A DNA stretch of 64,000 nt from an uncultured virus (IMG/VR IMGVR_UViG_3300029305_001437) (lineage: Duplodnaviria > Heunggongvirae > Uroviricota > Caudoviricetes), in the IMG/VR virus record IMGVR_UViG_3300029305_001437; one strand, given 5' to 3'. A program made the position numbers and the translations under genes. Positions 1-63,781 of the stretch are shown in pieces. A model generated the notes under the pieces. The model made no database searches. It was not told where the DNA came from and was given only the letters and a program-made list of their open reading frames with translations. Numbering within the stretch: position 1 is the stretch's first letter; each line of letters begins with the position of its first letter.

Positions 1-52
1 CGGCATCGGCGCCACGGTCTCGTTTGGCCTGTGCCCCCGCTTCTCTATCTAA
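1..52 (+). CDS. 3' end of the DGR target gene (partial; C-type-lectin-fold receptor-binding protein inferred), containing VR and IMH
   Basis: Frame starting at 2 reads GIGATVSFGLCPRFSI*. Bases 1-40 match TR 1048-1087 except at 8 TR adenines. Confidence 0.9.
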   Translation, partial: GIGATVSFGLCPRFSI

Positions 53-129: not shown

Positions 130-924
130 ATGTCAGTACATCGCAGCGACCGAAAAGTAGCGTTTATGGAGTTCGTCCGCCAGATGGCAATGGTTCATCG
201 GCACACTCACGAGCGGCTCCGGTCGCTTCCGTCACGGTATAAGCGGTACATCGTACCGAAGATCAGCCAACCACTCAACGGAGCTTATGTATCGGTGATC
301 CTCGCCAATGAACAGAACGCAAAGACGAGCTTGGGATCTCGGCAACGAGCGGCACTCTTTGAACGGAGTGTGCAGCAGTTGCGGGAGGTTCAGGAGCCGC
401 TGGTTGCGTACTGGAATTTGTGCGATGTAACCGAGTCCGGTAGCTCTGCTTGGGCGGAGATGTTCAACCGTGAATTTGCCTTGATATACGGCGTAGCGAA
501 AACGAAAGGAAAACCGCCAATGTTTTTCAGTATGCCCAGGAGAAAGATCGAAAAGCTGGCCTTCTTGAAAAAGATGTGCCTGCTTCATAAGTTCACATAC
601 CAGAAGCTCGGTCACGCTCCGGAGTATACACGGGACGGCATTGGCGAACCTATCTCGAAGTTCATCAACAACGCCCTGTTCAATGTATTCGATGCGAACA
701 ATATCGTGCCGACTACAAGGATAGAGGCGGACAGGCGGGAGAAGCGTCTGCAGGCGGCGATTGACTCACTCAACGCAATGCAGACCCCTCTCCTTGCCCT
801 GTGGAACATTATGGATTACAGCGAGTCCATAATGGATGAATGGGCAGGTCTTCTTGATGAAGAACTGCGGTTGCTGGAAGGCTTGAAAAAGGCCGACCGG
901 GAACGGTACAAGAACCTGCGATGA
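130..924 (+). CDS. avd: DGR accessory protein, Avd-like four-helix bundle, tandem duplicated
   Basis: Lies between VR and TR; basic and helical; MSV..R start and DRERYK end; ungapped internal repeat at a 130-aa offset. Confidence 0.8.
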   Translation: MSVHRSDRKVAFMEFVRQMAMVHRHTHERLRSLPSRYKRYIVPKISQPLNGAYVSVILANEQNAKTSLGSRQRAALFERSVQQLREVQEPLVAYWNLCDVTESGSSAWAEMFNREFALIYGVAKTKGKPPMFFSMPRRKIEKLAFLKKMCLLHKFTYQKLGHAPEYTRDGIGEPISKFINNALFNVFDANNIVPTTRIEADRREKRLQAAIDSLNAMQTPLLALWNIMDYSESIMDEWAGLLDEELRLLEGLKKADRERYKNLR

Positions 925-957
925 AAGGAGAACACGGGTGGTATTCTATCATTGGCT

Positions 958-1095
958 TTCTGCGAACAACTTCTGGTTGCGTGGTGCCTCGGTCACTAAC
1001 TCGACGAACTTTGGCAATGTGAACAACAACGGCAATGTGAACAACAACGGCAACAACGCCACGAACTCGAATGGCCTGTGCCCCCGACTCTCGTA
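958..1095 (+). repeat. DGR template repeat (TR) with IMH*
   Basis: AAC-rich; conceptual translation SANNFWLRGASVTNSTNFGNVNNNGNVNNNGNNATNSNGLCPRLS. The 5' boundary is approximate because most of VR is outside the window. Confidence 0.93.
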
Positions 1096-1366
1096 ATTAA
1101 AGTAACCAGGTATGAGGGTGAAAATAATCGAATTATGAGAAGGAGAATACAACCCTCCGGGAGGCTCCCCGGTAAATAAATGGCAGTCCTGCTTTAAGGA
1201 CAGCACACCACGCCCGGTGTCACAATTTGGTCGGGAGGACGCTTCTTGCATGGCAGCAGAATGTCCGCCTTCTGCTGTTTCATTCCCGATACCATTTGCC
1301 CGATAGAAAACGACGGAAACTCCGAAGGACGGTCGATTACCGTTGGGGGAACGATAACAGATCGGG
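1096..1366 (+). ncRNA. Putative DGR RNA 3' spacer region
   Basis: Non-coding gap between TR and RT containing stems such as GGCAGCAGAA...TTCTGCTGTT (1252-1279); position is analogous to the BPP-1 spacer. Confidence 0.55.
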
Positions 1367-2608
1367 ATGTGCGTAGGCGAACTTTATCTTATGAGTAATC
1401 AAGAACGCATCCAAGCCCGGATTGCCCGGGATAAGGCTCGAAAGGCCGAAAAGAGAAAAGGTGTCATAGAAAAGCACGGCACCTACGAAAATGTCTTTAC
1501 GCTCCAAAATCTCCACAGGTCATTGCAGAAACGCAGAAAGAATGTGGAGTGGAAAGGCAGCGTCCAGGCGTACCTTGCCCACGCCATCGTGAAAATGAAA
1601 CGGGCAAAAGATGACCTGCTCCGTGGAGATATGAATATCAAGAACACGATCAGGAGAATGACGATCTACGAAAGAGGTAAACGCCGTGAGATCCACGCAA
1701 TCCTGATTGACAGTCGTGTCATTCAGGGCGTTCTCTGCGATGCCTCGATCACGCCGCTGACCCAGCCGTCGCTGATCTATGATAACCCTGCAAGCACCAA
1801 GCATAAGGGTATCAGCCACGCCCGAAACCGGGTGCTGAAGATGATCCGTGACCAGATCAAGGAAAGCGGACCGAACTCGTATGTTCTGCTGACCGACTAT
1901 TCCGGGTTCTTTGATAGCATCCTCCACGCAGTTTGCAGAGAAAAGCTCCGCAAGGCAGGAATGGACGAACGCCTCCGGAACTTGACGCTGGATTGCATCA
2001 AGATGTATCTGGCTCAGGACATCTCGTTTGTCGATGACCCTGCAGAAAGGGAGCGGCTGCTGCGAGAGCTTGCAGAAGACCGTTCCTGTGGTGCAACTCT
2101 TGGCAGTCAGATCTCGCAGGATATGGCACTGGTAGTACCGAACGACATTGACCACGCTGTCAAAGATAAGCTCGGTATGAAACGCTATATGCGGTATATG
2201 GATGACAGCCAGACAAGCAGTGGCAGCAAAGAAACCCTGCGGCTCGTCTACGATGTCATCAAATCGCAGAGCGAAGAAACTGGGTTGAAACTGAACGAGA
2301 AGAAGACTCGGATCGTTAAGTTTACCCGTGGCTTCGTATTCCTGAAGATCCGCTACATCGTCACGGAGACTGGCAAGGTTATCCGCAAGATGGTGAAATC
2401 CGGAATTGTCCGGATGCGGCGAAAGCTCAAGAAATTCGTTGAGCTCGTCCGAAAAGGGAAGATGTTGTTGGACGATGCCTTCAATTCGTTCAACTCGTGG
2501 AGAGGCAATGCCAAAAAGTTTGCCAATTCATACAGAGCAAGGAAGGCTATGCTTGTTCTGTATAATCGGTTATTCAAACGATACAGAACAGGAGGTATAG
2601 CAGCGTGA
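1367..2608 (+). CDS. DGR reverse transcriptase (start may be ATG 1391)
   Basis: ~410 aa with LGSQISQ and YMRYMDD motifs, a basic C-terminus and no maturase or endonuclease extension. Confidence 0.96.
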   Translation: MCVGELYLMSNQERIQARIARDKARKAEKRKGVIEKHGTYENVFTLQNLHRSLQKRRKNVEWKGSVQAYLAHAIVKMKRAKDDLLRGDMNIKNTIRRMTIYERGKRREIHAILIDSRVIQGVLCDASITPLTQPSLIYDNPASTKHKGISHARNRVLKMIRDQIKESGPNSYVLLTDYSGFFDSILHAVCREKLRKAGMDERLRNLTLDCIKMYLAQDISFVDDPAERERLLRELAEDRSCGATLGSQISQDMALVVPNDIDHAVKDKLGMKRYMRYMDDSQTSSGSKETLRLVYDVIKSQSEETGLKLNEKKTRIVKFTRGFVFLKIRYIVTETGKVIRKMVKSGIVRMRRKLKKFVELVRKGKMLLDDAFNSFNSWRGNAKKFANSYRARKAMLVLYNRLFKRYRTGGIAA

Positions 2609-3093
2609 ATTACTACAAGATCATCGAAAACGGTGTCGTCATCGACGCCAACTGCGTGTTCCTGAAATGGCAGAAGAAGAACAACATCCTGATCGGCTGT
2701 GATGCTTCGGAAGCCAACTTCATCCAGTCTTCGGACCAGGAGAAGGTGTGGAAGGTAGACTGGCTGATCCCGGCTGAGGCTGGGGCAGGCGAGTATCCCA
2801 CCGCAACCGCAGTAGAAATTACGAAGGAAGAATACGACGAGCTCCGGGCACAGCTTGATGCCGGACAGGAGCCTGTTGAACCTGAACCCGTCGTTCCTGA
2901 GGAGCCGTCCGAACCGGAGGATACCGGTGAGCAGGCCGGCGAACAGGTGATGAGCGTCGAGGAGATGCGTCGCAGGATCGTCGTTTTGGAAACAGCTCTT
3001 GAGGAGCAGAAACAGATCAACGGTGAGCAGATGGAGCGGAATGACTTCCTCGAAGGCTGCTTGCTTGAGATGTCGGAGATCGTCTATGGTTAG
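2605..3093 (+). CDS. Hypothetical phage protein (acidic; tail-associated position)
   Basis: GGAGG RBS, GTG start overlapping the RT stop. Confidence 0.75.
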   Translation: MNYYKIIENGVVIDANCVFLKWQKKNNILIGCDASEANFIQSSDQEKVWKVDWLIPAEAGAGEYPTATAVEITKEEYDELRAQLDAGQEPVEPEPVVPEEPSEPEDTGEQAGEQVMSVEEMRRRIVVLETALEEQKQINGEQMERNDFLEGCLLEMSEIVYG

Positions 3094-4287: not shown

Positions 4288-6084
4288 ATGACCAATATTC
4301 AACTCGCCAAAAGGCTGATTGATATTGCGAAGAACTACAAAACTCTGTATGTGTTGGGGTGCTTCGGTGCACCGCTGAACGCAGCAAATAAGAAGCGGTA
4401 CTCCAACAACTACGCATACAACAAGAAGGCAGCAAGAACCGCCAAGATCAATGCCGCCAGCGACGACACTTTCGGCTTCGACTGTGTCTGCCTGATTAAG
4501 GGTGTCCTGTGGGGATGGGACGGCGACAAGGGAGAGACCTACGGCGGTGCCGGTTACGCCATCAACGGCGTTCCGGACATTGGTGCCGACGCAATGATTA
4601 AGAAATGCTCCGATGTGACCACCGACTTTACCGACATCGAAATCGGCGAAGCGGTGTGGATGTCCGGGCATATCGGCGTCTATGTCGGCGACGGCCTTGC
4701 TGTCGAATGTACCCCGAAGTGGGCTGATGGTGTTCAGCTCACCGCCTGCAACCGGTCCGTCAGCGGCTACAACCGCCGGGACTGGACGAAGCACGGCAAG
4801 TTGCCCTACATCACCTACGAAAAGGCTGCCGAGGCACCGAAACCTACGGCTCCCGCACCGGCTTTGACGGTAATGACTGCCGCAGAGACCGAGAAGGCGA
4901 TGTACAAGTACCTGACCGAGGAGCTTGGCTTGAATTGTGCCGCCGCCTGCGGTGTGCTGGCTAACATCAACGCCGAGTCTGCGTTCGAGTCCACCAACCT
5001 GCAGCAGACCTATGAGAAGTCTCTGGGCTTCACAGATGCCACCTATACCGCAGCGGTAGACAATGGCACCTATGACAACTTCGTCAGGGATGCCGCCGGC
5101 TACGGTTTGGCACAGTGGACATACTGGAGCCGCAAGCAGAAGCTGTTGGATTACGCCAAGAGCAAGGGCAAGTCCATCGGCGATGCAGAGATGCAGTTCC
5201 AGTTCTTCGGGCAGGAGATCAAGGGATACTCCGCTGTATGGAATACCCTGAGATCTGTGCCGAACACCGCAGAGGGTGCGTATAAAGCGGCCTACGATGT
5301 CTGCTACCACTACGAAGCTCCTGCAAATAAGGCTGTCCGGGCTGAGGAGCGTGGCAAGAGTGCCAAGAAATACTTTGCCAACTACGGCGGAGGATCTGCA
5401 CCTGCTACTCCCACGACTCCGCCTGCAACCACCGATTTCGCTGTGGGCGACAAGGTCTATGTCACCGGCAAGATCTACGCCTACGGCAACGGCACTGGAA
5501 ATTCCCTGACCAAGGAAAATTCGGTGATGTACATCTGCGAGTTCGTTGACTCCAAGAGATTTACACACTACATCGGCGTGTCCGCTGTGAAGGGCGGTCG
5601 CAGACAGGGTTGGGCAAAGCCCGACATCCTGTCCAAGACCAGTTCCGCAACTCAGCCTGCACCGAAGCCCTCCACGGGCACCACGCAGGGCTACATTGAG
5701 TACCCTGTGCAGATCGGCGATACGCTGACCAAGATCGCAGCGAAGTACAAGACGACCATCGCTAAGATCGTTGCCGCCAACGGCATCAAGGATGCCAACA
5801 AGATCTATGTCAATCAGATCTTGAAGATCCCCACCGAGGGTGTTACCGAAAATGTGACGACCGCAAAGCCTGCGACATTCGCTGTGGGCGATGCGGTCGT
5901 TGTTAATGGTACGATCACCGCCTACGGCAGCGGTGGGGGCAAGAAGCTCACCAAGAAGGGTGTCCGGATGTATGTCTGCGACATCGAGAACTCCAAAGTT
6001 TACCCGAACTACATCGGCGTATCTGCCGTAAAGGGCAGTGCCCGTCAGGGCTGGGCGAACCCGGAGATCCTGACGAAACAGTAA
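4288..6084 (+). CDS. Multidomain endolysin: NlpC/P60-like peptidase, phage tail lysozyme-type domain, two SH3-like repeats and LysM
   Basis: FDCVCLIKG...GHIGVY; NINAES...GYGLAQWT; duplicated FAVGD...YIGVSAVKG..RQGWA; YPVQIGDTLTKIA...NGIKDANKIYVNQILKIP. Confidence 0.9.
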   Translation: MTNIQLAKRLIDIAKNYKTLYVLGCFGAPLNAANKKRYSNNYAYNKKAARTAKINAASDDTFGFDCVCLIKGVLWGWDGDKGETYGGAGYAINGVPDIGADAMIKKCSDVTTDFTDIEIGEAVWMSGHIGVYVGDGLAVECTPKWADGVQLTACNRSVSGYNRRDWTKHGKLPYITYEKAAEAPKPTAPAPALTVMTAAETEKAMYKYLTEELGLNCAAACGVLANINAESAFESTNLQQTYEKSLGFTDATYTAAVDNGTYDNFVRDAAGYGLAQWTYWSRKQKLLDYAKSKGKSIGDAEMQFQFFGQEIKGYSAVWNTLRSVPNTAEGAYKAAYDVCYHYEAPANKAVRAEERGKSAKKYFANYGGGSAPATPTTPPATTDFAVGDKVYVTGKIYAYGNGTGNSLTKENSVMYICEFVDSKRFTHYIGVSAVKGGRRQGWAKPDILSKTSSATQPAPKPSTGTTQGYIEYPVQIGDTLTKIAAKYKTTIAKIVAANGIKDANKIYVNQILKIPTEGVTENVTTAKPATFAVGDAVVVNGTITAYGSGGGKKLTKKGVRMYVCDIENSKVYPNYIGVSAVKGSARQGWANPEILTKQ

Positions 6085-7454: not shown

Positions 7455-7545
7455 GGCAGCCAAGGGGAACGGAGGTTAGCACAATTTGGACACTCATTAC
7501 CTCCGGGACAAAAACCCGCCAAAAGGCTGCCAAATGCCTCCTACG
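7455..7545 (+). repeat. Dispersed intergenic element, family B copy 1
   Basis: ACCTCCGGGACAAAAACCCGCCAAAAGGCTGCCAAATGCCTC; A-tracts phased about 11 bp apart. Confidence 0.6.
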
Positions 7546-7660
7546 GGGGTTTGAAATCAGGAAGGCGGAGCCTCCAAAAAGTAAAGAAGATAAGATACCA
7601 CATACGCACGGAAAATCAATTCACAAAATAGACAAAAAATGAAGTTCGTTTTTTACATAT

Positions 7661-7742
7661 CAGTCTCTCGGGCACTTTAGACCTTTGCCATATACAATCA
7701 CCTCTGAATGGAAAACCCCGGTAAACCCCGCCAAATGGCCCG
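7661..7742 (+). repeat. Dispersed intergenic element, family B copy 2
   Basis: AGTCTCTCGGGC...AAACCCCGCCAAATG shared with 28299-28380. Confidence 0.7.
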
Positions 7743-7805
7743 TATGTAATTTGTCCTTGTAAATGATTATTTTGAAAAATAATTTGAAAAATCCGAAAAT
7801 AATAC

Positions 7806-7833
7806 TTGACTTAGGAGGTAGGTGTTGTAAGAT
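7806..7833 (+). promoter_or_regulatory. Early-type promoter P1
   Basis: TTGACT-taggaggtaggtgttg(16)-TAAGAT with upstream A-tracts. Confidence 0.85.
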
Positions 7834-7848
7834 TAAGGTACAAATAAA

Positions 7849-7862
7849 TTACCAATCGGTAA
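7849..7862. promoter_or_regulatory. Putative repressor operator
   Basis: TTACCAATCGGTAA, identical to 45355-45368. Confidence 0.75.
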
Positions 7863-7897
7863 CAGCCGAAAGGTACAACGGTAAAGGAGTAACCGAA

Positions 7898-10800
7898 ATG
7901 GACGAACAGATGATCCAGGCGAAATTCCAGAAGGCTCAGGCCGATAGCATCCGCTACGGCATTTGCTACATCCTCAGCAACGGCAAAGACCTGCAGACGG
8001 CAGTGACCGAGCAGCTCAAGGAAGACCTGAAAGAGAAGGGCTACTGGGTGGCCTTGATCTTCCAGAATGGCTACAAGGTAGACTTGTAAGGAGGATCCGG
8101 AATGAGACGAAAGAACGGACGGACCGCAAAGGTCCTGAACCAGTCCTGGCACGGAATTGCCCGTTGGGTAGTCCAGCACTATCTGGACGATTGCCTGATC
8201 TGTGAAACGGTTCGTAACAGCCGACAGGCTGCAAGAAAGGTAGCCCAGAACTACATCGCAACCGGGATGATCCCGCTGAACTAAGGAGGAACAGAAATGA
8301 TTGATCTTCGTAAGTACGAAAGTCTGATCCGGGAGCTGGTCGAAAAGGAAAGCGAAAAAGACCGGAATTGGAAATGGTCGATCAAGTACCTCGGAAAGTC
8401 GGTTGTCAGGATCGGCTGGGGCTACCTGAACTACATCGGCGAGAAGGATACCTTCAAGCTGGAGATGCAGAATGAGGAACCTGGTTCCGGAGTTGGTGAC
8501 TGGCTTTGGGCGAAATCCCCCAACGGCGAATATGAGTGCTACTTGGTAGTCGAAGGCAAGCCGAACCCCCGGATCGGTGCTGAGATGAATATCGAGAACG
8601 CAATCCGTGATGCGATTTGGGAGATCTCCTACATCGCACACAGCAGATATTGATAGGAGGAAACGACAATGAAACTGTACCTGGTTCAGGAGAAGCTCCC
8701 CGACGGAGAAATGTTCGCCAAGATGAAACCCGCAACCGAAATCATCAACGACTTCGGCTTCCGGGATTGTACCGACGCCGAATACGAGGTCTACGATGTG
8801 AGCGAGTTCGGCAAGATCGTCAAGCTGGAGCACTGGCCGGCAATCTCGGCCCCGTTCAACTACCATCGGTTCGTCAATCCCGAAAGCGGCGAGATCGTAT
8901 TTGAGGGTTACAGCCCGGAGCATTAAGGAGGACGATATGACAGAGATCAGTATTGAACGATATGCCCAAAAGGTGCAGGAAGCGGCAAAGAAGTACCCCG
9001 GAGCTAAGATCACCAGCGTTGGCTTTGGAGCCGTAGATCGTCAGTGGGTGTATTTCCTGTTTATGAAGAAGGGCGAGGTTGAAATCAAAGTGACGATACC
9101 CGCCGAGGAGGAATGAGGATGAACGCAATGAAAAATGTGCGGCCCGAACAGGTGAAGCACTTGATCGTCAAGAGCATCGAGGAGTTCCAGAAGGATGTAA
9201 GATCCGCAGTTCACAAGAGTGCGTACCCCTTCGTTACCTGCGGCAAGGTTGAGTTCTTCGATGACATTGGCTACCGCAGCAAGTATGAAACAATGCTAAG
9301 ACTGTCCGAATACTACGGTGTGGAAGTCGTGGCTGTTGAACCGGAGGACGAAGTCGAGGCGAAGAATATCTTGATTGAGTTCACCGATAAAGAAGTAAAA
9401 TCCGAAACCTGAATTATAGGAGGACAAAGAAATGGTAGGCAAGATGATGTTCGTAGCTGTAAGCAAACCCGTTGTTTCCAGAAGAAAGCCCGAGGCTCCC
9501 GAGGTCGACGCAGACCAGGTGGTCTTGCAGATGGTGAACTCTGCGACCCGCAAGCGTATCAATGAGCAGAAGAAGCAGGAGCTGATCCACCGGATCGAGG
9601 AGCTCCAGCGTCGTGAAGCGGCTGTGCTTCGCCGTGAACAGGTCGTAGGCCGCAAGGAAGCTAAGCAGAGAGCTTGGGACAGACGGGTCAACCTCATTGT
9701 TGACAGTCTGCTTGTCCTGTTCTCCACGATCGGTATGGTCGTGACTGTCATGTTCCTATTGGGACTGTGAGGTTGATATGAGTAAGACGGTAGACGGTGT
9801 TCGGTACTTCGTTTGCAAGAAGTGCGGACAGCCTAAGCAGGAAGGTATCGCTCACTGGAAGAAGAAAAGTCAGAAAGATAAGAATGTCTGCCTCGACTGC
9901 ATCAAGCGGCGGAAGATTATGGAGCAGACCCGTGAGGAGATGGGGCTGAGCATCGGCTCCTTCTTCGGCAGATACAGAATGTGAGGTGCTATATGGCAGT
10001 GAATGTAAAGAAACTGGCAGAGTGCGTGTATGACATTACATCGGTCGCCTGCCACGCTCTGTTCGCAGATCCGGACAGAAAAGAGCAGGACATCGACTCC
10101 AGAGCATTGTTCGACGACATCTATGGATGGGCTCAGGAGTTCGAGAGGGAGAACCCGGACCCGGTTGATTATATGCTGGAGATCGAGATCTTCGCATACA
10201 AGAAACTGCGTGAGAATGGCTATATGCCAGAAGGGGGTGACGACGATGATGGTTGCGTTTAAGATCCTGATGTTCATCTGTGCGATCCTGTCCTTCTTTG
10301 GCAGTATGGGCGAGAAAGACACGGCAAAGCAGAAGATGCAGCTTGCTATCTTCGCATCTTCCGGTGTTTTGTTCCTTTTAGCCGAAGCGGTCACGAAATT
10401 CATTCATTGAGAGGTGATACAGAGTGGAAAGACGGAGAAGGAAAAGGTGCAGATTTCCCGCTGGTGTTACCATCAAACCGGATGGGGTGAACAGTCTTGC
10501 CCCTTGTGTGTACGAAACCAAGGAGATCCATCGCAATGTAACGGTAGAAGTCTGCCAGTGCAAAGTGTGTGGACATATTGAATTATTTTGGACGCCGCAA
10601 GAAGACAGCGAACACGAGATCATCGCTGAGCTTCAACCGGTGCCCGAAGACGAATAGGAGGTGAAATAGAATGGACCATATCGAACAGAGAGTGCAGACC
10701 CTGGTGGCGTTCATCCGGAACGCCTGCCGCATTTGCGGCCTGAACATCACGATCTTCGACGGCAAGATCGGCTTCGTCGATCAGGAAGCAAAGAAGATTG

Positions 10801-14535: not shown

Positions 14536-14624
14536 AAGTATACCTCCGTATGGCTGGAATTGATAAGATTTATTGTACCAAGGCAGATTTTGGGTGTCAA
14601 CGAACATCTGGGTAACAGAAATTA

Positions 14625-14700
14625 CCGAATACAGCGTTTTCTGCGGATCTCAGCAATACTTACCTCATTCGGACATCGGCAATCAGCTCCAAACTGTTCG
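14625..14700 (+). repeat. Dispersed intergenic element, family A
   Basis: CCGAATACAGCG...AGCAATACTTACCTCATTCGG...CGGCAATCAGCTCC. Confidence 0.75.
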
Positions 14701-14815
14701 CTTACAGGACACATCTTGTCTGCAAGAAGGGCACGGATTTTGAAGTCGATCAGGTGCGTTTGGTAAACGGAAACGAGGACGGAGAAAAATATTTTCGGAA
14801 ATCACGAAATTACTA

Positions 14816-14843
14816 TTGACACCGGAGGTAGGTATGTTAAAGT
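14816..14843 (+). promoter_or_regulatory. Early-type promoter P2
   Basis: TTGACA-ccggaggtaggtatgt(16)-TAAAGT. Confidence 0.75.
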
Positions 14844-14888
14844 ATAGTTAAGGAAGAAATTCCAGACCAGTATTAGGAGGAACCCGCA

Positions 14889-19790: not shown

Positions 19791-19853
19791 GGTTCCGTTT
19801 GTCAGCGAATACGAATACTTTTGAAAATATTTTGAAAAAATCCGTAATTCTTA

Positions 19854-19881
19854 TTGACTTAGGCGGTAGGTAAGTTAAGAT
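19854..19881 (+). promoter_or_regulatory. Early-type promoter P3
   Basis: TTGACT-taggcggtaggtaagt(16)-TAAGAT. Confidence 0.85.
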
Positions 19882-20963
19882 AAGTATGTAGATAAACCAC
19901 CCCGAATAACAAGGAGGAAACGAAATGGAACTGAAGCTCGTTGAAGCATTTGAGGTAGACGACAGAAAGGTTGACCGTTACGAGATCGGCGATTATGAAG
20001 TGATTGCCCGGACATATAGCTGGGGTTGTCGAGTAGAAGTTAGCACCGTGAACAGAGAAAGATATTTGCCTGACATCTACTGCAGAACCGACGGAGGTGA
20101 AATCGTCGGATTTAAGGTGCAGACCACATCCTACGGTACACTTCCGGTCGACGAGGTAAAGAAGGTCGTCGATGGACTGAACGAGGCAATCGAGGTTGTC
20201 GAGATCCTGACCAAGACCTTCGTTGGGAAGTAAGACTGGAGGTGTACAAGATGACCCTGAGTGGAATGAAGGCGATCCGGTACTTCTCTTGGATGAATGA
20301 TTTCCTCGATTTCACGGTGATCGTTCCAGAGAAGCAGGCGGACGAGGCAGCCGAGCTGATTAAGAAGGCTCTCGATATGTACTGGGACGATGAATACGAA
20401 ACCTACGGCGACGCAGTATACGGCGAACTCAACGGTGCTGGTATCCCGTTCTTTATGATCGGGCAGCCGTGGAACGATAAGAGCGATTGCCCGGACACGA
20501 GCGTAATGGACTACGAGAAGTGGCTGGATGAATTTGACGAGGGTGATGTCATCACCTTGCACAGCTGATAGGAGGAACTGAAATGAAAGCAATCCTGTAT
20601 GTGGATGACGGATACGGTGATTTCTACGAGATTGGCCAGTACCCGAATATGATCGCCGCTGAAAAGGCGATGTACCAGTCCTACGACGGCGGAAAGCACG
20701 AAGACCACCGGATTAAGTGGGATGGTAGGCTGTACCATTACCCGTCTTACAAGCTCTGCTTGTCCCCTTGCCGCAGATGCGGAGAAGAAGCCAGAGTCAA
20801 CGAAATGCAGCTGACCCACGACTGCCACGGGATCCCGTACCGGAGTGTATGCCCGAAGTGCTACGACCAAGTTCGGCGGATCGGATACGACGGTGTTAGG
20901 TACGGTGTTGGAGACGAGAACCTCGACTACGATTACTGATCGTAGTTTTTTGATAGCCAGGAG

Positions 20964-22896: not shown

Positions 22897-22977
22897 GAAT
22901 ACAGCAATTTTCAGGATGAATAGCAATACCTACATCATTTGAAACCCGGCAAACAGTAGGAAACTGTTCGCCGACAG
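22897..22977 (+). repeat. Dispersed intergenic element, family A
   Basis: GAATACAGC...AGCAATACCTACATCATTTGAAACCCGGCAAA...AAACTGTTCGC. Confidence 0.75.
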
Positions 22978-24441
22978 AACAATATGTACGCAAGGAGGAT
23001 GCGTTAAGTGAAGGCAGAATTTCTCAGCATAGCTGATAAACGACGAATTGTACTGCTGTCAGCCAGTATCAAGGCGAAGCGGAAGCAGTACGACGAGCAG
23101 GAGTGGCACTTGGTCAGCGACCAGGTTCAGATCACCGTTAAGGATTTCGGCAGCCTCGGTATCGAAGTGAACGGAATGTACCAGAGCGGTAACTTGAGTG
23201 TCGATTTCTATGAGCAGATCAACGGCAACTGGAAGGTTTGCTGGAGGTTTATTCACAACTCCGGAAGCCGTGAGACCCTCGAAAGTGCCATTGAGCACAA
23301 CATCGACCTCCTGCTTTGCAAGAAGCACAAGGATGAGCTGAACCAGAAGCGTAGAAAGTACCGAAAGGGAAGGCCTATCAAGACCCTCGACGAGCTTGCC
23401 AATGAGGAGTTCGTATACCTGAACGACAAGATCACGCACTGGGGTTGGTTTATGAGCTGGCAGCTCAAGATGGCTCTGGATATGATCGCCCGTGGTGCAA
23501 TTTGCTACGCAATCCGGAAGGAGGACGACGAGGATGAATGAACCGAAGGTATACTTGGATGGCAACAAACTGATTTCGGAGACTTTGCACAACCGCCTCG
23601 TTTTTGAGGTGGTCGATGAGCCTCCCCTTGGTTTTGAGGTATGGAATATTGGGCCGAATGTGATACCCGGCTATCTCCCGTTCTGCAGACTCGCCAGAAA
23701 ACAGCCGTTTCCGGGCGGCAGAAACATCGAAGTCGATACGCTGAAGGCTATGAAATTCGATGGGGCCGAAAAAATCCTTAGAGCTGCCAGTTCTGGGAAA
23801 ACGGTGGAACAGATGGAGCAGTTCATCGAAAAGAACAGAACATCCAAGAGCGGAGATGTTCAGCACCGGATACGAATTTACGCCGATGCGATCCCGCTGA
23901 TGAAAAAGCTCGGCATAAGGAAGTGAGATAAGATGAAAGAAATTGATGATATGCCCCAGAACAGCTGTCCTTACACCGGAACAACATTTGCTTTCGAGTG
24001 TCCTTATTGCCACCACGGTGTATGTTCTGAAACATCGCCCTGCGGCGGCCCCACAGAAATTCATTGCTACGACGAGATGACAGACTTCACGGAGGAGCAT
24101 TTCGAGGCGGTTAATCGGAGAATGAAGATCCGGAAACTGGCAGCAGCCATCGAGGAGTATACCGAAAGCCTGTCTGTCAGGGATATTCACAGGGCGGACT
24201 TCGCAGATAAATTCGCTGCGTTCCTGCTCGATAAGGGAGTGGTTTGATATGGATGTCCGATACAGCGTTTATCGTGTGAAAGACGATGCACCGATCGTTA
24301 TATTCGGGACGATACCGCAGTGTGCGAAAGCACTCGGCCTCACAATCGACTCGTTTTACAGTCAGGCATCGAAACAGCGGAGCGGAAAGTATTCCGCAGG
24401 GAGCAAGCGGAAGTACCGCATAGTAAGAGAGGAGGCCGACG

Positions 24442-28382: not shown

Positions 28383-28424
28383 TGAACCTGTCAACGAAAA
28401 CGAATAAAACGAAAAAAATTTCCG

Positions 28425-28499
28425 AAAATCCGAAAATAATACTTGACTTAGGCGGTAGGTGTTGTAAGATTAAGGTACAAATAAATTACCAACCGGTAA
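28425..28499 (+). promoter_or_regulatory. Early-type promoter P4 plus operator; near-identical copy of 7788-7862
   Basis: 73 of 75 bases identical; TTGACT 28443, TAAGAT 28465, TTACCAACCGGTAA 28486-28499. Confidence 0.9.
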
Positions 28500-32557: not shown

Positions 32558-32606
32558 TGCGGTTTTATTGACACCGAAAAATCTTTCGTTTTTTCCGTAT
32601 TTCCTA

Positions 32607-32634
32607 TTGACTTAGGTGGTAGGTATTGTATCGT
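32607..32634 (+). promoter_or_regulatory. Early-type promoter P5
   Basis: TTGACT-taggtggtaggtattg(16)-TATCGT. Confidence 0.75.
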
Positions 32635-32672
32635 AAAGTTACGGAAACCACATAGAAAGTGAGCTGAAATGT

Positions 32673-34873
32673 ATGAACATCGAACAGTTTATGGAGTATT
32701 TGCACCAGAATTTCACGATCGACCGGGCGACGAGTAGCTTGATCCGAAACATCCTCGATTATGCCCGGACTTTCGTTGCGGAGGACCAGCAATACGAGTT
32801 CTTATGCAAGACCCTGGATGGAACGATCGGCCTGTCTGACCGAGAAATCCGGATGATCTGTTTGTAAGGGGGGCTGAATATGGAAAGACAGTGGAGACTG
32901 GATGATGACCTGATAACGAAGGACAACCTGCTTGACGGCATCACCTTCGACGATGTGATCCTGGCACTGCACACGGAACGGGTGATCGACCCCGCTTCTG
33001 CTGAACGGGTTCTCAAAGAAACCTTGGAGATCCGCCTGCAGGATATGAGGCACCTTTTCCAGAACAACATCGACCTGATAATCGCCAAAGCGAAAGAGGG
33101 TCGAGCAGAGTACGAAGGCCAGGGAGGTGAATGATCGTGCTGAAACCCGGCATTTACCACGCCAGCAATGACGAGAGCATCTGGAACGCATACGATGTAA
33201 AGATGGAGGTCAAGGAAACCGATAAGTCGTACATCTTCGAGCTGGTCAGTTTGGAGAGCCACTATGCGGCTGACCACATCAAGATGCTTTTCAAGAAGTC
33301 CAACCGCTTCGTTCTCCGGAAGGATCAGGGCGGTCACGCAATGCGGGTATGGGACGATACGCACTTCACGATCTACCCGTTCCAGGCCGGCATCCCGTAC
33401 TATTTCAAGATGGAGCCTGAAACAGACCGGTTCAAAAAGCTCTGCGATGATTTCAGCAAACGGAGACCCGTCGGAAAGCCTACCGGCAGATGTTTTTGGT
33501 TCACCACGGAGTTCACGAGCGGATCTCAGTCGCTCAACGACCTGCTCCGAAAGTATTTGATCGACCGTGGCTTCCAGTATTTGAATACCCTGAACGGTGA
33601 TGTATGGTTTCTGTTCCAGGGTGAATGGAGAATGTGCGAGTTCAAGTGTGATGGCAACAAAGTTGATGTCTATATGCTTGAGTTCGATCTCGGTTAGGAG
33701 GCAATATGAAAATTGCGTACAGACACAGCAGTACACCCGAAGCGGTGAAGATCCACGACACAGAAAAGTCACTGAAAGGCTGCGAAGGCTTTATCCGGTC
33801 GCTGGGTGGAGATCCCAAACAGGAAGACTGGGATAAGCGAGAGCTTGAGCGATTCCTAAGTGATGTAGCGAAGGGTGTTATCCTTGATTACTGGATTGTA
33901 GAAGGTGTGTACAGACCTGACTTGTCCCACCTGTGGAAGGAGTGCGAGGATGAAACATCCGTGTCTTGAATGTGGGCTCCGGTACAGTAGCTACTGTATG
34001 GGGTGCGAGAATAAGCCCTTCGGCATCGGACAGATACCGATCATAGAGCCTGCTCCCCGGAAGAATAAACGCAAAGATGCAAATAAGAATGGTCAAACTT
34101 GCACTTTTGCTGAGAAAGATTGTAAGTATAGTTAGAATAAAGAGGTAATGAAATGGCAAGAGGTCGTCAACAAAGATGGGTCTGTATGGACTGCAAGGGT
34201 GAGTTTTCGGTTCAAGGAAATACTCCCCGGCTTTGCTGTTCCTGCGGATCTGGCAATATTGGCAGAGCACCCAGCTATGAGCTTGCCGTTAATTTTGCGG
34301 AGAAACGAAAAGAACTGGGTGCCATCTGCCTGGAGCTGAACCCGGCCTACGAAAAGGCTATGGGATTGAAAGAGCAGTACGACAAGGTGATGGCGTACTG
34401 GAAGCAGCAGAGGAGTCGTGGATACATCACGGCAGAAGAATACGATGTCCTGGCATCCTGTTTTGTCGGATACAAGTCGAAAGATCGGCAGTAACACCCG
34501 AATACAGCGATTTCCACGGATCGTAGCAATACCTATATCATTCGGTAAATTTCCAGCGGCATAGGAGCTGGATTTTTATAGCAGACCAGTTACCAAACGG
34601 ATATGCTGGCAGAACACAACGGAAAGGTGGAAGCGATTGAACTATTACGAGATCTATTTGAGAGAAACCGGGAAGCTGGTGGCCAAGGGCACCGCACGGG
34701 AGTGCAGAAAGCAGCTTGGATGCTCCAGCCTTGACAGTTTCTATGCACTCGTCAACCGATCCATCCGAGGGATCAACAAGAAGTACCACGCAATTAAGAA
34801 AAAAGGTGGGGAAACGGACTACCCGGTACTGGGAGCCAATGACCCGATCCACAAACTCAAGGGAGGAACCTGA
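32673..34873 (+). other. Short hypothetical ORFs (32673-32867, 32880-33134, 33131-33697, 33706-33969, 34153-34494, 34637-34873)
   Basis: Operon-like packing. Confidence 0.7.
34498..34560 (+). repeat. Dispersed intergenic element, family A
   Basis: CCGAATACAGCGATTTCCACGGATCGTAGCAATACCTATATCATTCGG. Confidence 0.75.
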
Positions 34874-56586: not shown

Positions 56587-57081
56587 ATGGAAACGGAAAA
56601 GTTGTTTGATGCTGACTCGGTCAAGGAATGGCTCGAAGACTATGTCCTGGCAGAGGAAGACATCGACGGTGAAATTGAGCGGCTCGAATACTTTGTATCC
56701 AAGATGACCAGCCTCGGCTCTCAGAATATGGATGGGATGCCCAGAGCCACAAACGCTTCCACAGACCGAATGGCCGAGATGCTTGCCCGGAAGGAGGAGC
56801 TTGAAGGATCTATCCGGGAGTCAGTCCGGAAGCAGGCAGAGGTCAGAAAGAAAATCGAGGCGGTTGTCCGGAAACTCCGGAAGGTAGAGCGAAGATCCGT
56901 GATCCGGTTGAAATACCTCGACCGTACTGAATGGGACGATGTGCTCGAAGTGATGTACGGCAAGAGGGATGACTTCGACGATAGGTACGATACATACCGT
57001 CGGGCGATGTACCGGCATCACGAGGACGCTCTTGCAGAAATGGCCAGGGTGATGAACCTAATGGCAACGCAGGAAGTTTGA
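56587..57081 (+). CDS. Late transcriptional activator, ArpU/RinA/DUF1492-like
   Basis: K.WL..Y...I..EIERLE...ERRSVIRLKYLD..EW...YR.H..AL; at the end of the replication operon. Confidence 0.7.
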   Translation: METEKLFDADSVKEWLEDYVLAEEDIDGEIERLEYFVSKMTSLGSQNMDGMPRATNASTDRMAEMLARKEELEGSIRESVRKQAEVRKKIEAVVRKLRKVERRSVIRLKYLDRTEWDDVLEVMYGKRDDFDDRYDTYRRAMYRHHEDALAEMARVMNLMATQEV

Positions 57082-57086
57082 AATAC

Positions 57087-57170
57087 CCGAATACAGCGGT
57101 TTCCAGACCAAGAAGCAATACCCTCTATCATCCGGATAATTTCTATCCGATCTATCAGCCAATTTTGTAG
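57087..57170 (+). repeat. Dispersed intergenic element, family A
   Basis: CCGAATACAGCGGTTTCCAG...GAAGCAATACCCTCTATCATCCGG...GCCAATTTTG. Confidence 0.75.
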
Positions 57171-57226: not shown

Positions 57227-57281
57227 TAATCTCCGCCACCGTTGACTACGAAAAATATTTAGAAAAATCCTGAAAAAACTA

Positions 57282-57309
57282 TTGACTTAGGTGGTAGGTA
57301 AGTTAAGAT
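57282..57309 (+). promoter_or_regulatory. Early-type promoter P6
   Basis: TTGACT-taggtggtaggtaagt(16)-TAAGAT. Confidence 0.85.
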
Positions 57310-57387
57310 AAGATTGTAAAAACAAACAAAATTCGGTGAAAAACAGCCAGTTTTGCACCTGAAATGTTCGGAAAAAGGAGAACCGAA

Positions 57388-63685: not shown

Positions 63686-63704
63686 TGCCCAAATGTCCGA
63701 CTCA

Positions 63705-63781
63705 AGCCAATACCAGAACCCGAAGCAATACCCTACATCATTCGGCACCCGGCAATCAGCTCCATTTGCCAATTTTGCAGA
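63705..63781 (+). repeat. Dispersed intergenic element, family A
   Basis: GAAGCAATACCCTACATCATTCGGCACCCGGCAATCAGCTCCATTTGCCAATTTTG. Confidence 0.75.

Follow-up and report, generated by a model that had tools for sequence, protein, structure and literature searches.

The accessory protein Avd is the least understood essential component of diversity-generating retroelements (DGRs). In the only solved DGR complex, that of BPP-1, Avd forms a symmetric pentamer, according to a preprint on its structure (10.1101/2023.10.23.563531). The same source reports that the reverse transcriptase (RT) is inactive without Avd, that the N-terminal extension of this RT (bRT) touches two of the five Avd protomers while a spacer stem-loop touches all five, and that the stoichiometry is 1:5:1. 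Each BPP-1 Avd is one bundle of about 128 aa. In the survey of Wu et al. (2018, PMC5758913), avd genes are described as “of similar length”, the mean isoelectric point (pI) of Avds is given as 9.5, and two separate avd genes are reported in one of 372 DGRs. Here we describe an Avd of a different build, encoded in 64,000 nucleotides of DNA from an uncultured gut phage of the Caudoviricetes. This stretch, hereafter the window, corresponds to bases 1-64000 of the 68,423-base IMG/VR virus record IMGVR_UViG_3300029305_001437. The open reading frame (ORF) at 130..924 (+ strand) encodes 264 aa plus stop and comprises an N-terminal and a C-terminal Avd-like bundle in a single reading frame. This ORF is very probably the Avd of a phage DGR, in a form that arose when a single-domain avd gene was duplicated in tandem and fused in frame; each half is an Avd-like four-helix bundle. 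It shares the presence of two Avd units with the two-avd cassette of Wu et al. (2018); there, the two units are separate genes, whereas here they are fused in frame and conserved.

The internal duplication is visible in the protein itself. The N half (residues 1-130, 130..519, +) is the more basic and less conserved bundle, and the C half (residues 131-264, 520..924, +) is the more conserved one and carries a C-terminal tail common to single-domain Avds. The initial annotation, made from the letters alone, had proposed a tandem two-domain Avd from an ungapped self-alignment at an offset of exactly 130 aa with about 34 identities. Both observations were borne out. Among ungapped offsets from 20 to 199, an offset of 130 is the sole top self-match, with 35 identities across all 134 aligned positions and a BLOSUM62 total of +145, and the runner-up offset scores -37. 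When the second half was shuffled 2000 times and offsets 120-140 were scored, the best score was -14 and the identities did not exceed 19. The strings given as examples (QEPLVAYWNL..TES..WA and QTPLLALWNI..SES..WA) are both found in the alignment, in which M1 pairs with M131. Comparison of residues 1-130 with residues 131-264 by BLASTP gave 30 identities over 102 positions, 54% positives, without gaps and with E=1e-17, and a profile-profile comparison of the two halves across 121 family members (hhalign) gave a probability of 99.5% and E=8e-23. The proposal of a tandem two-domain Avd is further upheld by the predicted Avd-like fold of both halves, by their profile match to single-domain Avds of phage DGRs and by the location of the gene at the Avd position of a cassette, as detailed below.

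The ORF sits where the BPP-1 cassette keeps avd: a variable repeat (VR) ends upstream of it, and a template repeat (TR) followed by an RT gene lies downstream. Bases 1..52 (+) are the 3' end of a target gene truncated by the contig start, with the end of the VR at 1-45 and the stop codon at 50-52. This assignment follows from the fact that bases 1-45 are repeated at 1048-1092 (80% identity, offset 1047 nt, repeat family D10) and that the mismatches fall at TR adenines: eight of the nine do so, and the ninth is a C>T difference at the 3' boundary. The TR extends over 953..1092 (+), its 3' end being set by the VR match and its 5' end being approximate and taken from a relative, L021; the region is rich in AAC codons. 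In L021, found in an Acutalibacteraceae metagenome-assembled genome (MAG) and encoding an Avd 83% identical to that of the window, TR and VR measure about 141 nt and lie 1050 nt apart, and 17 of 18 mismatches are at TR adenines under plain identity scoring; its target protein measures 1621 aa and carries a DUF6273 at the C terminus. The boundary difference between GACTCTC (TR) and GCTTCTC (VR) is also present in L021, as expected for non-identical IMH and IMH* (initiation of mutagenic homing) ends. Downstream of the TR lie a spacer RNA (1088..1354, +), matched by the Rfam family RF03077 (RT-2 RNA), and the gene of a DGR RT of 413 aa (1367..2608, +), which is recognized by Pfam RVT_1 (E=4.2e-15) and PHROG 1423 (E=5.8e-57) and contains a YxRYMDD motif. 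The same cassette order was observed elsewhere, all 24 related loci having an RT homologue downstream of their double Avd. VR/TR pairs of 74-141 nt were found in all 17 related loci with upstream DNA, with a scoring that favoured A mismatches. The remainder of the target gene was sought at the end of the record (60000-68423) and not found; the record is therefore a fragment rather than a permuted circle. Immediately after the RT, an acidic 162-aa ORF (2605-3093, +) without any Pfam match overlaps the RT gene, starting 4 bases ahead of its stop codon. It might be either a further cassette gene or the next phage gene, and L021 has an ORF of the same length at the same place (7494-7982).

The fold of both halves was predicted and compared with known structures. 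The full-length AlphaFold2 (AF2) model, built from a 40-sequence alignment, consists of two four-helix bundles with a predicted local distance difference test score (pLDDT) of 91.2 and a predicted template modelling score (pTM) of 0.87; the N half modelled alone reached a pLDDT of 83.3. Structures were ranked by an all-against-all comparison with 48,161 PDB chains (VIA Z-scores). The matches of the whole model were dominated by residues 137-264. For the C half (residues 137-259 of the whole model), the first match was 2gsc_A (Z 16.4, root-mean-square deviation (rmsd) 1.8, 113 aligned), followed by 2rld_A (Z 14.5), 4dwl_A (Z 13.5, rmsd 2.1, 106 of 109 aligned) and 8ub7_B (Z 13.2). For the N half alone, the first was again 2gsc_A (Z 14.5, rmsd 2.4, 108 aligned), then 2rld_A (Z 14.2), 4dwl_A (Z 12.3, rmsd 2.6, 105 of 109 aligned) and 8ub7_B (Z 12.1). 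Ranks 1-4 are thus occupied by the same entries in the same order for both halves, and all four belong to the Avd/S23 family, 4dwl being BPP-1 Avd and 8ub7_B the Avd chain of a DGR ribonucleoprotein. For these modelled halves, the identical top four is a stronger point than the Z margin, which is modest. Foldseek also matched 2gsc, as well as viral “Avd-like protein” models of BFVD, at a probability of 1.00; its E-values were all above 0.001, and only the rank order and the VIA Z-scores are informative. According to these models, both halves are Avd-like four-helix bundles, and an unrelated fold, which would have contradicted the initial annotation, was not obtained for either.

The likeness to BPP-1 Avd (4dwl) goes beyond the predicted bundle of each half. 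It includes a basic pI (9.71 for the whole protein, as in published Avds), the position of the gene between the target VR and the TR-RT part of the cassette, and a structured spacer RNA after the TR in both systems. BPP-1 Avd is a single bundle, and the usual Avd is a single domain of about 110-150 aa, whereas the window protein has two bundles in its 264-aa chain; these two bundles are unlike each other in charge and conservation, and the protein has no detectable sequence similarity to BPP-1 Avd in PDB searches at E up to 10 or with Pfam bAvd. The other structural relatives, 2GSC and 2RLD of the PF05635 or “S23 ribosomal protein” family, are the best matches for both halves; they are bacterial, chromosomal and single-domain proteins, and the window protein remains below every Pfam threshold for this family.

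Sequence homology to Avd was established through single-domain relatives of the window protein. Both halves match a profile of 24 clean single-domain Avds, the N half with 99.8% probability and E=5e-28 and the C half with 99.9% and E=1e-32 (hhalign), which answers favourably the profile comparison that the initial annotation had proposed for each half. PHROG 3206, “Avd protein of DGR”, is matched by 20 of the 28 single-domain relatives scanned, and an RT lies directly downstream in all 12 loci retrieved with one single-domain relative as query. Since most of the single-domain relatives scanned match PHROG 3206 and both halves match the profile of these relatives, the halves are tied to PHROG 3206 transitively and strongly. 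Several observations nevertheless weigh against identifying the protein as an Avd with two specialized halves. The four-helix bundle is a common fold, and unrelated bundles reach Z 10-12, which leaves a margin over background of 1-4 Z units. Pfam, including PF22296 (bAvd) and PF05635, gave no match to the whole protein or to either half at E up to 10, save a chance-level EH match, and no Avd was found among PDB sequences at E up to 10, either with phmmer or with a 40-member family profile. The direct match to PHROG 3206 concerns the C half alone and is weak (E=5.6e-4, 20.5 bits), the N half being unmatched. Besides, the target gene lies outside the record, hence the activity of the window element is judged from 45 nt of VR, and the division of labour between the halves is argued solely from charge and conservation. 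Concerning the remaining database searches, a Pfam scan of 44 relatives gave sub-threshold matches in three, all of them single-domain, and NCBIfam returned nothing.

The double Avd is not peculiar to this virus. An exhaustive phmmer search yielded 158 representatives at 50% identity; among the 150 listed, 81 were full-length (250-295 aa) and about 30 were single-domain proteins (120-155 aa) matching the C half alone. The length of the homologues is narrowly distributed, at 263-266 aa in 38 of 46 clusters. A tree of 192 rows was then computed with FastTree, including 82 N halves and 82 C halves (from the window protein and the 81 representatives) together with 28 single-domain proteins. All N halves formed one clade, all C halves another, and 24 of the single-domain proteins a third. 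The four remaining “singles” fell within the N or C clades; these same four had no PHROG match, and they are most simply explained as fragments. In an IQ-TREE analysis of 94 rows, from a random subset of 35 doubles with 24 singles, each group again lay on one side of a branch, with SH-aLRT values of 94, 87 and 74. Because N halves, C halves and singles each form one group, one duplication-fusion explains the whole family.

The initial annotation had also asked whether double Avds track one RT clade, and the answer is yes. The survey was seeded by an RT alignment and not by Avd. Among the best 80 loci of at least 520 RT relatives, the upstream Avd was double in 26 and single in 48; five loci were cut by a contig end and one had none. 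In a tree of 82 distinct RTs, of which 36 were associated with a double and 46 with a single Avd, a single branch with a support of 100 splits the two states, FastTree and IQ-TREE being in agreement; a single change is therefore sufficient on the RT tree. This tree is unrooted, and the derived state of the double form rests on the Avd tree and parsimony. The Avd and RT trees thereby show that the fusion arose once and has been inherited strictly together with one RT clade. Among the closest known systems are, in the sister DGR clade on the other side of this branch, the single-domain Avds of gut Clostridia phages (PHROG 3206; P0151-P0196). They are homologous to both halves and encoded in cassettes with the same order (Avd, TR, RT-2 RNA, RT), their RTs are 34-39% identical to the window RT, and their elements share RNA blocks with the window, such as AGTAACC, AGAAGGAG and GGACGC..CTTGCAT. 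They differ in that their Avds are one bundle of 132-154 aa and their RTs stand across the branch of support 100.

The two halves are not equivalent. In the window protein, the pI is 10.13 for the N half (net charge +9) and 9.04 for the C half (net charge +3). Across the family (121 members), the N half carries a median net charge of +7 and the C half one of +2, against +5 for single Avds, and the N half is more basic than the C half in 94 of the 121. Compared with the window protein, N halves are on average 30% identical and C halves 40%, with the C half scoring higher in 110 of 120 members. The N half nevertheless retains invariant or near-invariant residues and is full length in all 82 tree rows. 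The initial annotation had suggested that the diverged halves could be specialized in RT and RNA binding; the divergence in charge and conservation that this supposes was indeed found, and its support for the proposed division of tasks is indirect. As judged from the sequences, this asymmetry fits a specialization of the halves but without showing it.

The spacer RNA of double-Avd elements also departs from that of single-Avd elements. Weinberg et al. (2017) list RT-2 among their RT-associated motifs. The window spacer matches RF03077 over model positions 1-222 of 222, with 66.5 bits (gathering score 40) and E=2.7e-14 (cmscan), and contains an insert of about 51 nt in its second hairpin relative to the RT-2 model. 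Among loci L039-L116, the RT-2 score ranged from 107 to 158 bits in 10 of 10 single-Avd loci, whereas in double-Avd loci it was 43-82 bits in five of 10 and below threshold in the other five. The blocks AGAAGGAG and GGACGC..CTTGCAT lie farther apart in doubles (median 91 nt, n=20) than in singles (median 48 nt, n=31), by about 43 nt; the loci counted are those with both anchors, which 16 doubles and 15 singles lack. When 10 double-Avd spacers were folded together, the consensus comprised 61 pairs, 26 of them with compensatory changes, and included the extra hairpins. The single-sequence fold of the window spacer was indistinguishable from shuffles (z = -0.78), so that the comparative fold alone is informative. 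A long-range duplex is predicted between the 3' end of the TR (1073-1086) and the invariant CGGGAGGACGC (about 1232-1243) in all ten aligned relatives; by analogy, it is reminiscent of the template:primer duplex of BPP-1. Protein doubling and RNA expansion map to one and the same branch and count as a single event, which is suggestive but unreplicated.

Considering its homology and its context, the double Avd may bind the RT N-terminal extension and the spacer RNA, as does BPP-1 Avd, and would thereby position the template:primer duplex for adenine-mutagenic cDNA synthesis. The basic N half might mainly contact RNA, perhaps the enlarged spacer RNA, and the conserved C half might mainly ensure RT contact and oligomerization. 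As two neighbouring Avd protomers form the contact with the RT in BPP-1, their covalent linkage could provide a built-in RT site, in which a two-protomer RT-binding unit would be hard-wired. If all bundles of identical chains have to lie in one ring, geometry rules out a homopentamer of equivalent protomers, and under that proviso the statement of the initial annotation that a covalent dimer cannot tile a five-membered ring holds. It does not hold if one half alone forms the ring, or if a free C half provides the fifth bundle (2+2+1=5). A complex prediction with three full-length copies (40-row alignment) gave a median ipSAE of 0.39, compared with a mark of 0.42 and controls at 0.00, which speaks neither for nor against self-association.

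The likeliest explanation for the assembly, to which we give somewhat less than an even chance, is that full-length chains alone assemble into a non-pentameric or two-layer body. Two forms can be envisaged: three chains could build a pseudo-sixfold ring of six bundles, or five chains could place their C halves in a canonical ring and their N halves in a second ring or outer collar binding the expanded RNA. The conservation of length and of both halves across the 81 representatives among the 150 listed is in line with such an assembly, and so are the unlike charge and conservation of the halves. The spacer of double elements, longer by the ~43 nt noted above and carrying extra hairpins with compensatory changes, would offer the additional RNA to be bound, and the monomer pTM of 0.87 suggests, at the level of a model, a fixed packing of the two bundles. 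However, the RNA expansion and the protein doubling share a single branch and are not a replicated correlation.

A second explanation, still in play but on the whole unlikely, is that the gene yields two products. A start at Met131 would release a 134-aa C half, and two full chains with one C half would make a five-bundle, Avd-like ring with built-in asymmetry. A separately made C half would dissolve the tiling paradox, because 2+2+1 bundles make five. The inter-domain linker (residues about 124-137, 499..540, +) contains a GAAAGGA Shine-Dalgarno (SD)-like motif (about 504-510) followed by the in-frame ATG of Met131 (520-522). The string upstream of the gene start is ACGAAAGGGTTTTCGCAA-ATG and that of the internal site ACGAAAGGAAAACCGCCA-ATG, with anti-SD duplexes of -4.5 and -5.6 kcal/mol, respectively. 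M131 is aligned to the ancestral start Met, and the 8-mer ACGAAAGG is identical and equidistant before both ATGs. Across 21 related loci, the junction codon is ATG in 17, GTG in two, GTT in one and AAA in one, and the two lineages without a start codon (GTT, AAA) are also weak in SD pairing (-5.3 and -2.2 kcal/mol). In 11 of these 21 loci (7 of 15 lineages), a GGAGG-type string at the junction gives the strongest anti-SD pairing in the ORF, often beating that of the annotated start. Likewise, 30 of 36 distinct double loci have an ATG, GTG or TTG within 4 codons of the C-domain start, 16 of these with a dG <= -8, and the junction site outdoes all other in-frame start-like codons in 23 of the 36. 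The case is less favourable in the window itself, where the site is weak at -5.6 kcal/mol: 51 of 222 in-ORF positions pair equally, and another in-frame start-like codon reaches -7.0. A null of synonymous codons was unbeaten in each of the 15 lineages (p<=0.05), with a combined p of 0.026; since this null was not beaten, the SD-like string is largely a by-product of the Lys/Arg-Glu-Glu residues of the linker. In addition, a Met occupies the aligned column in only five of the 82 rows formed by the window protein and the 81 representatives at 50% identity, six of the 36 loci have no start-like codon at the junction, and the fusion event itself could have left the site behind as a relic.

Taken as a whole, a composite architecture can be drawn from these elements, and we consider it doubtful: a distinct DGR ribonucleoprotein, in which a covalent asymmetric Avd pair, with a basic RNA-binding half and a conserved RT-binding and oligomerizing half, together with an expanded RT-2 RNA, would replace the homopentamer, and in which, in many members, a separate C half may complete a 2+2+1 ring. 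If true, the Avd pentamer would not be obligatory for DGR reverse transcription, and the family would provide a natural single-chain handle on which protomers do what.

It appears improbable that the N half is a decayed passenger, retained but idle, with the C half alone acting as Avd and forming the pentamer. The C half is nearer to single-domain Avds, is the sole half reached by phmmer with single-domain relatives and by PHROG 3206, and is the more conserved in 110 of 120 members, all of which this explanation would account for. However, if it were idle, some lineages should have truncated or discarded it, whereas the N half is full length in every row of the tree, keeps its invariant or near-invariant residues and is still modelled alone as a confident bundle (pLDDT 83). 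Moreover, it is more basic than single Avds (median +7 vs +5), and the N halves form one clade whose branching mirrors that of the C halves. Finally, it is most improbable that the ORF is no Avd at all but some ordinary helical phage protein, or a pair of neighbouring genes merged through a faulty assembly or frame, lying beside a DGR, as the missing Pfam match and the common fold might suggest, given that no break in its frame occurs in 121 proteins or in 36 distinct, independently sampled loci, that its position between VR and TR is fixed, that the top four fold matches of both halves are all of the Avd/S23 family, and that its profile homology to context-verified single Avds is strong.

We regard as real a fusion of two Avd units that arose once and has been conserved within a single DGR clade, and its distribution was examined. 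No description of a fused, tandem or double Avd was found in the literature searched, preprint supplements being outside its scope. The initial annotation had allowed that tandem Avds might turn out to be common and already characterized; they are common in metagenomes, and no account of characterized ones was found. Family members bear no public name other than “hypothetical protein”, the atlas clusters are unnamed and viral, and tblastn of the protein gave no match in 50,697 GenBank phage records. The hosts of six prophage copies are Clostridia MAGs. In a genome sample of the host class, a double Avd was detected in one of 399 scored species genomes, namely the centre genome, and one further genome had the C half only; two genomes were unscored. 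Part of the family may already be present in published compilations. In the available part of Table S1 of the survey cited above (PMC5758913), the AVD ranges cover 345-423 nt among 54 of 57 Clostridia occurrences, and an AVD range of 807 nt is listed for one Alistipes cassette. In the same part, several Lineage 1 Clostridia cassettes are coded “TG-TR-RT”, i.e., with no accessory gene, and leave 630-913 nt without annotation between target and TR, an example among those of Architecture A1 being ACTW01000029.1_150706_151770; one Lineage 1 cassette has a VR-to-TR offset of 1046 nt, compared with 1047 nt in the window. As far as these entries go, such cassettes may hold unrecognized double Avds and have been counted as Avd-less, and the share of “Avd-less” DGRs is perhaps overestimated. 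This lineage fused two Avd units, let them diverge and kept the fusion over at least 81 clusters and a whole RT clade. Since the fusion is natural, has diverged and was kept, the family amounts to a ready-made experiment on the Avd surfaces devoted to RNA, RT and ring. The double Avd could also simplify engineered DGR mutagenesis, with fewer and asymmetric subunits.

Some further features of the window lie apart from the cassette. An endolysin-like gene (4288-6084, +) combines Phage_lysozyme2 with LysM, and its C-terminal module is duplicated internally, with copies at 5437-5636 and 5878-6077, 441 nt apart. A dispersed repeat of about 45-60 nt, GAATACAGCG...AGCAATACCTA..CATTCGG, is found at 14616-14711, 22897-22981, 34489-34546, 57081-57135 and 63691-63745. 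Another element, of 67 nt, occurs in six copies (7776-7842, 14786-14852, 19824-19890, 28413-28479, 32577-32643 and 57252-57318); it consists of a conserved TTGACTTAGGnGGTAGGT core followed by a TAAGAT-like hexamer and looks like a repeated phage promoter or operator module.

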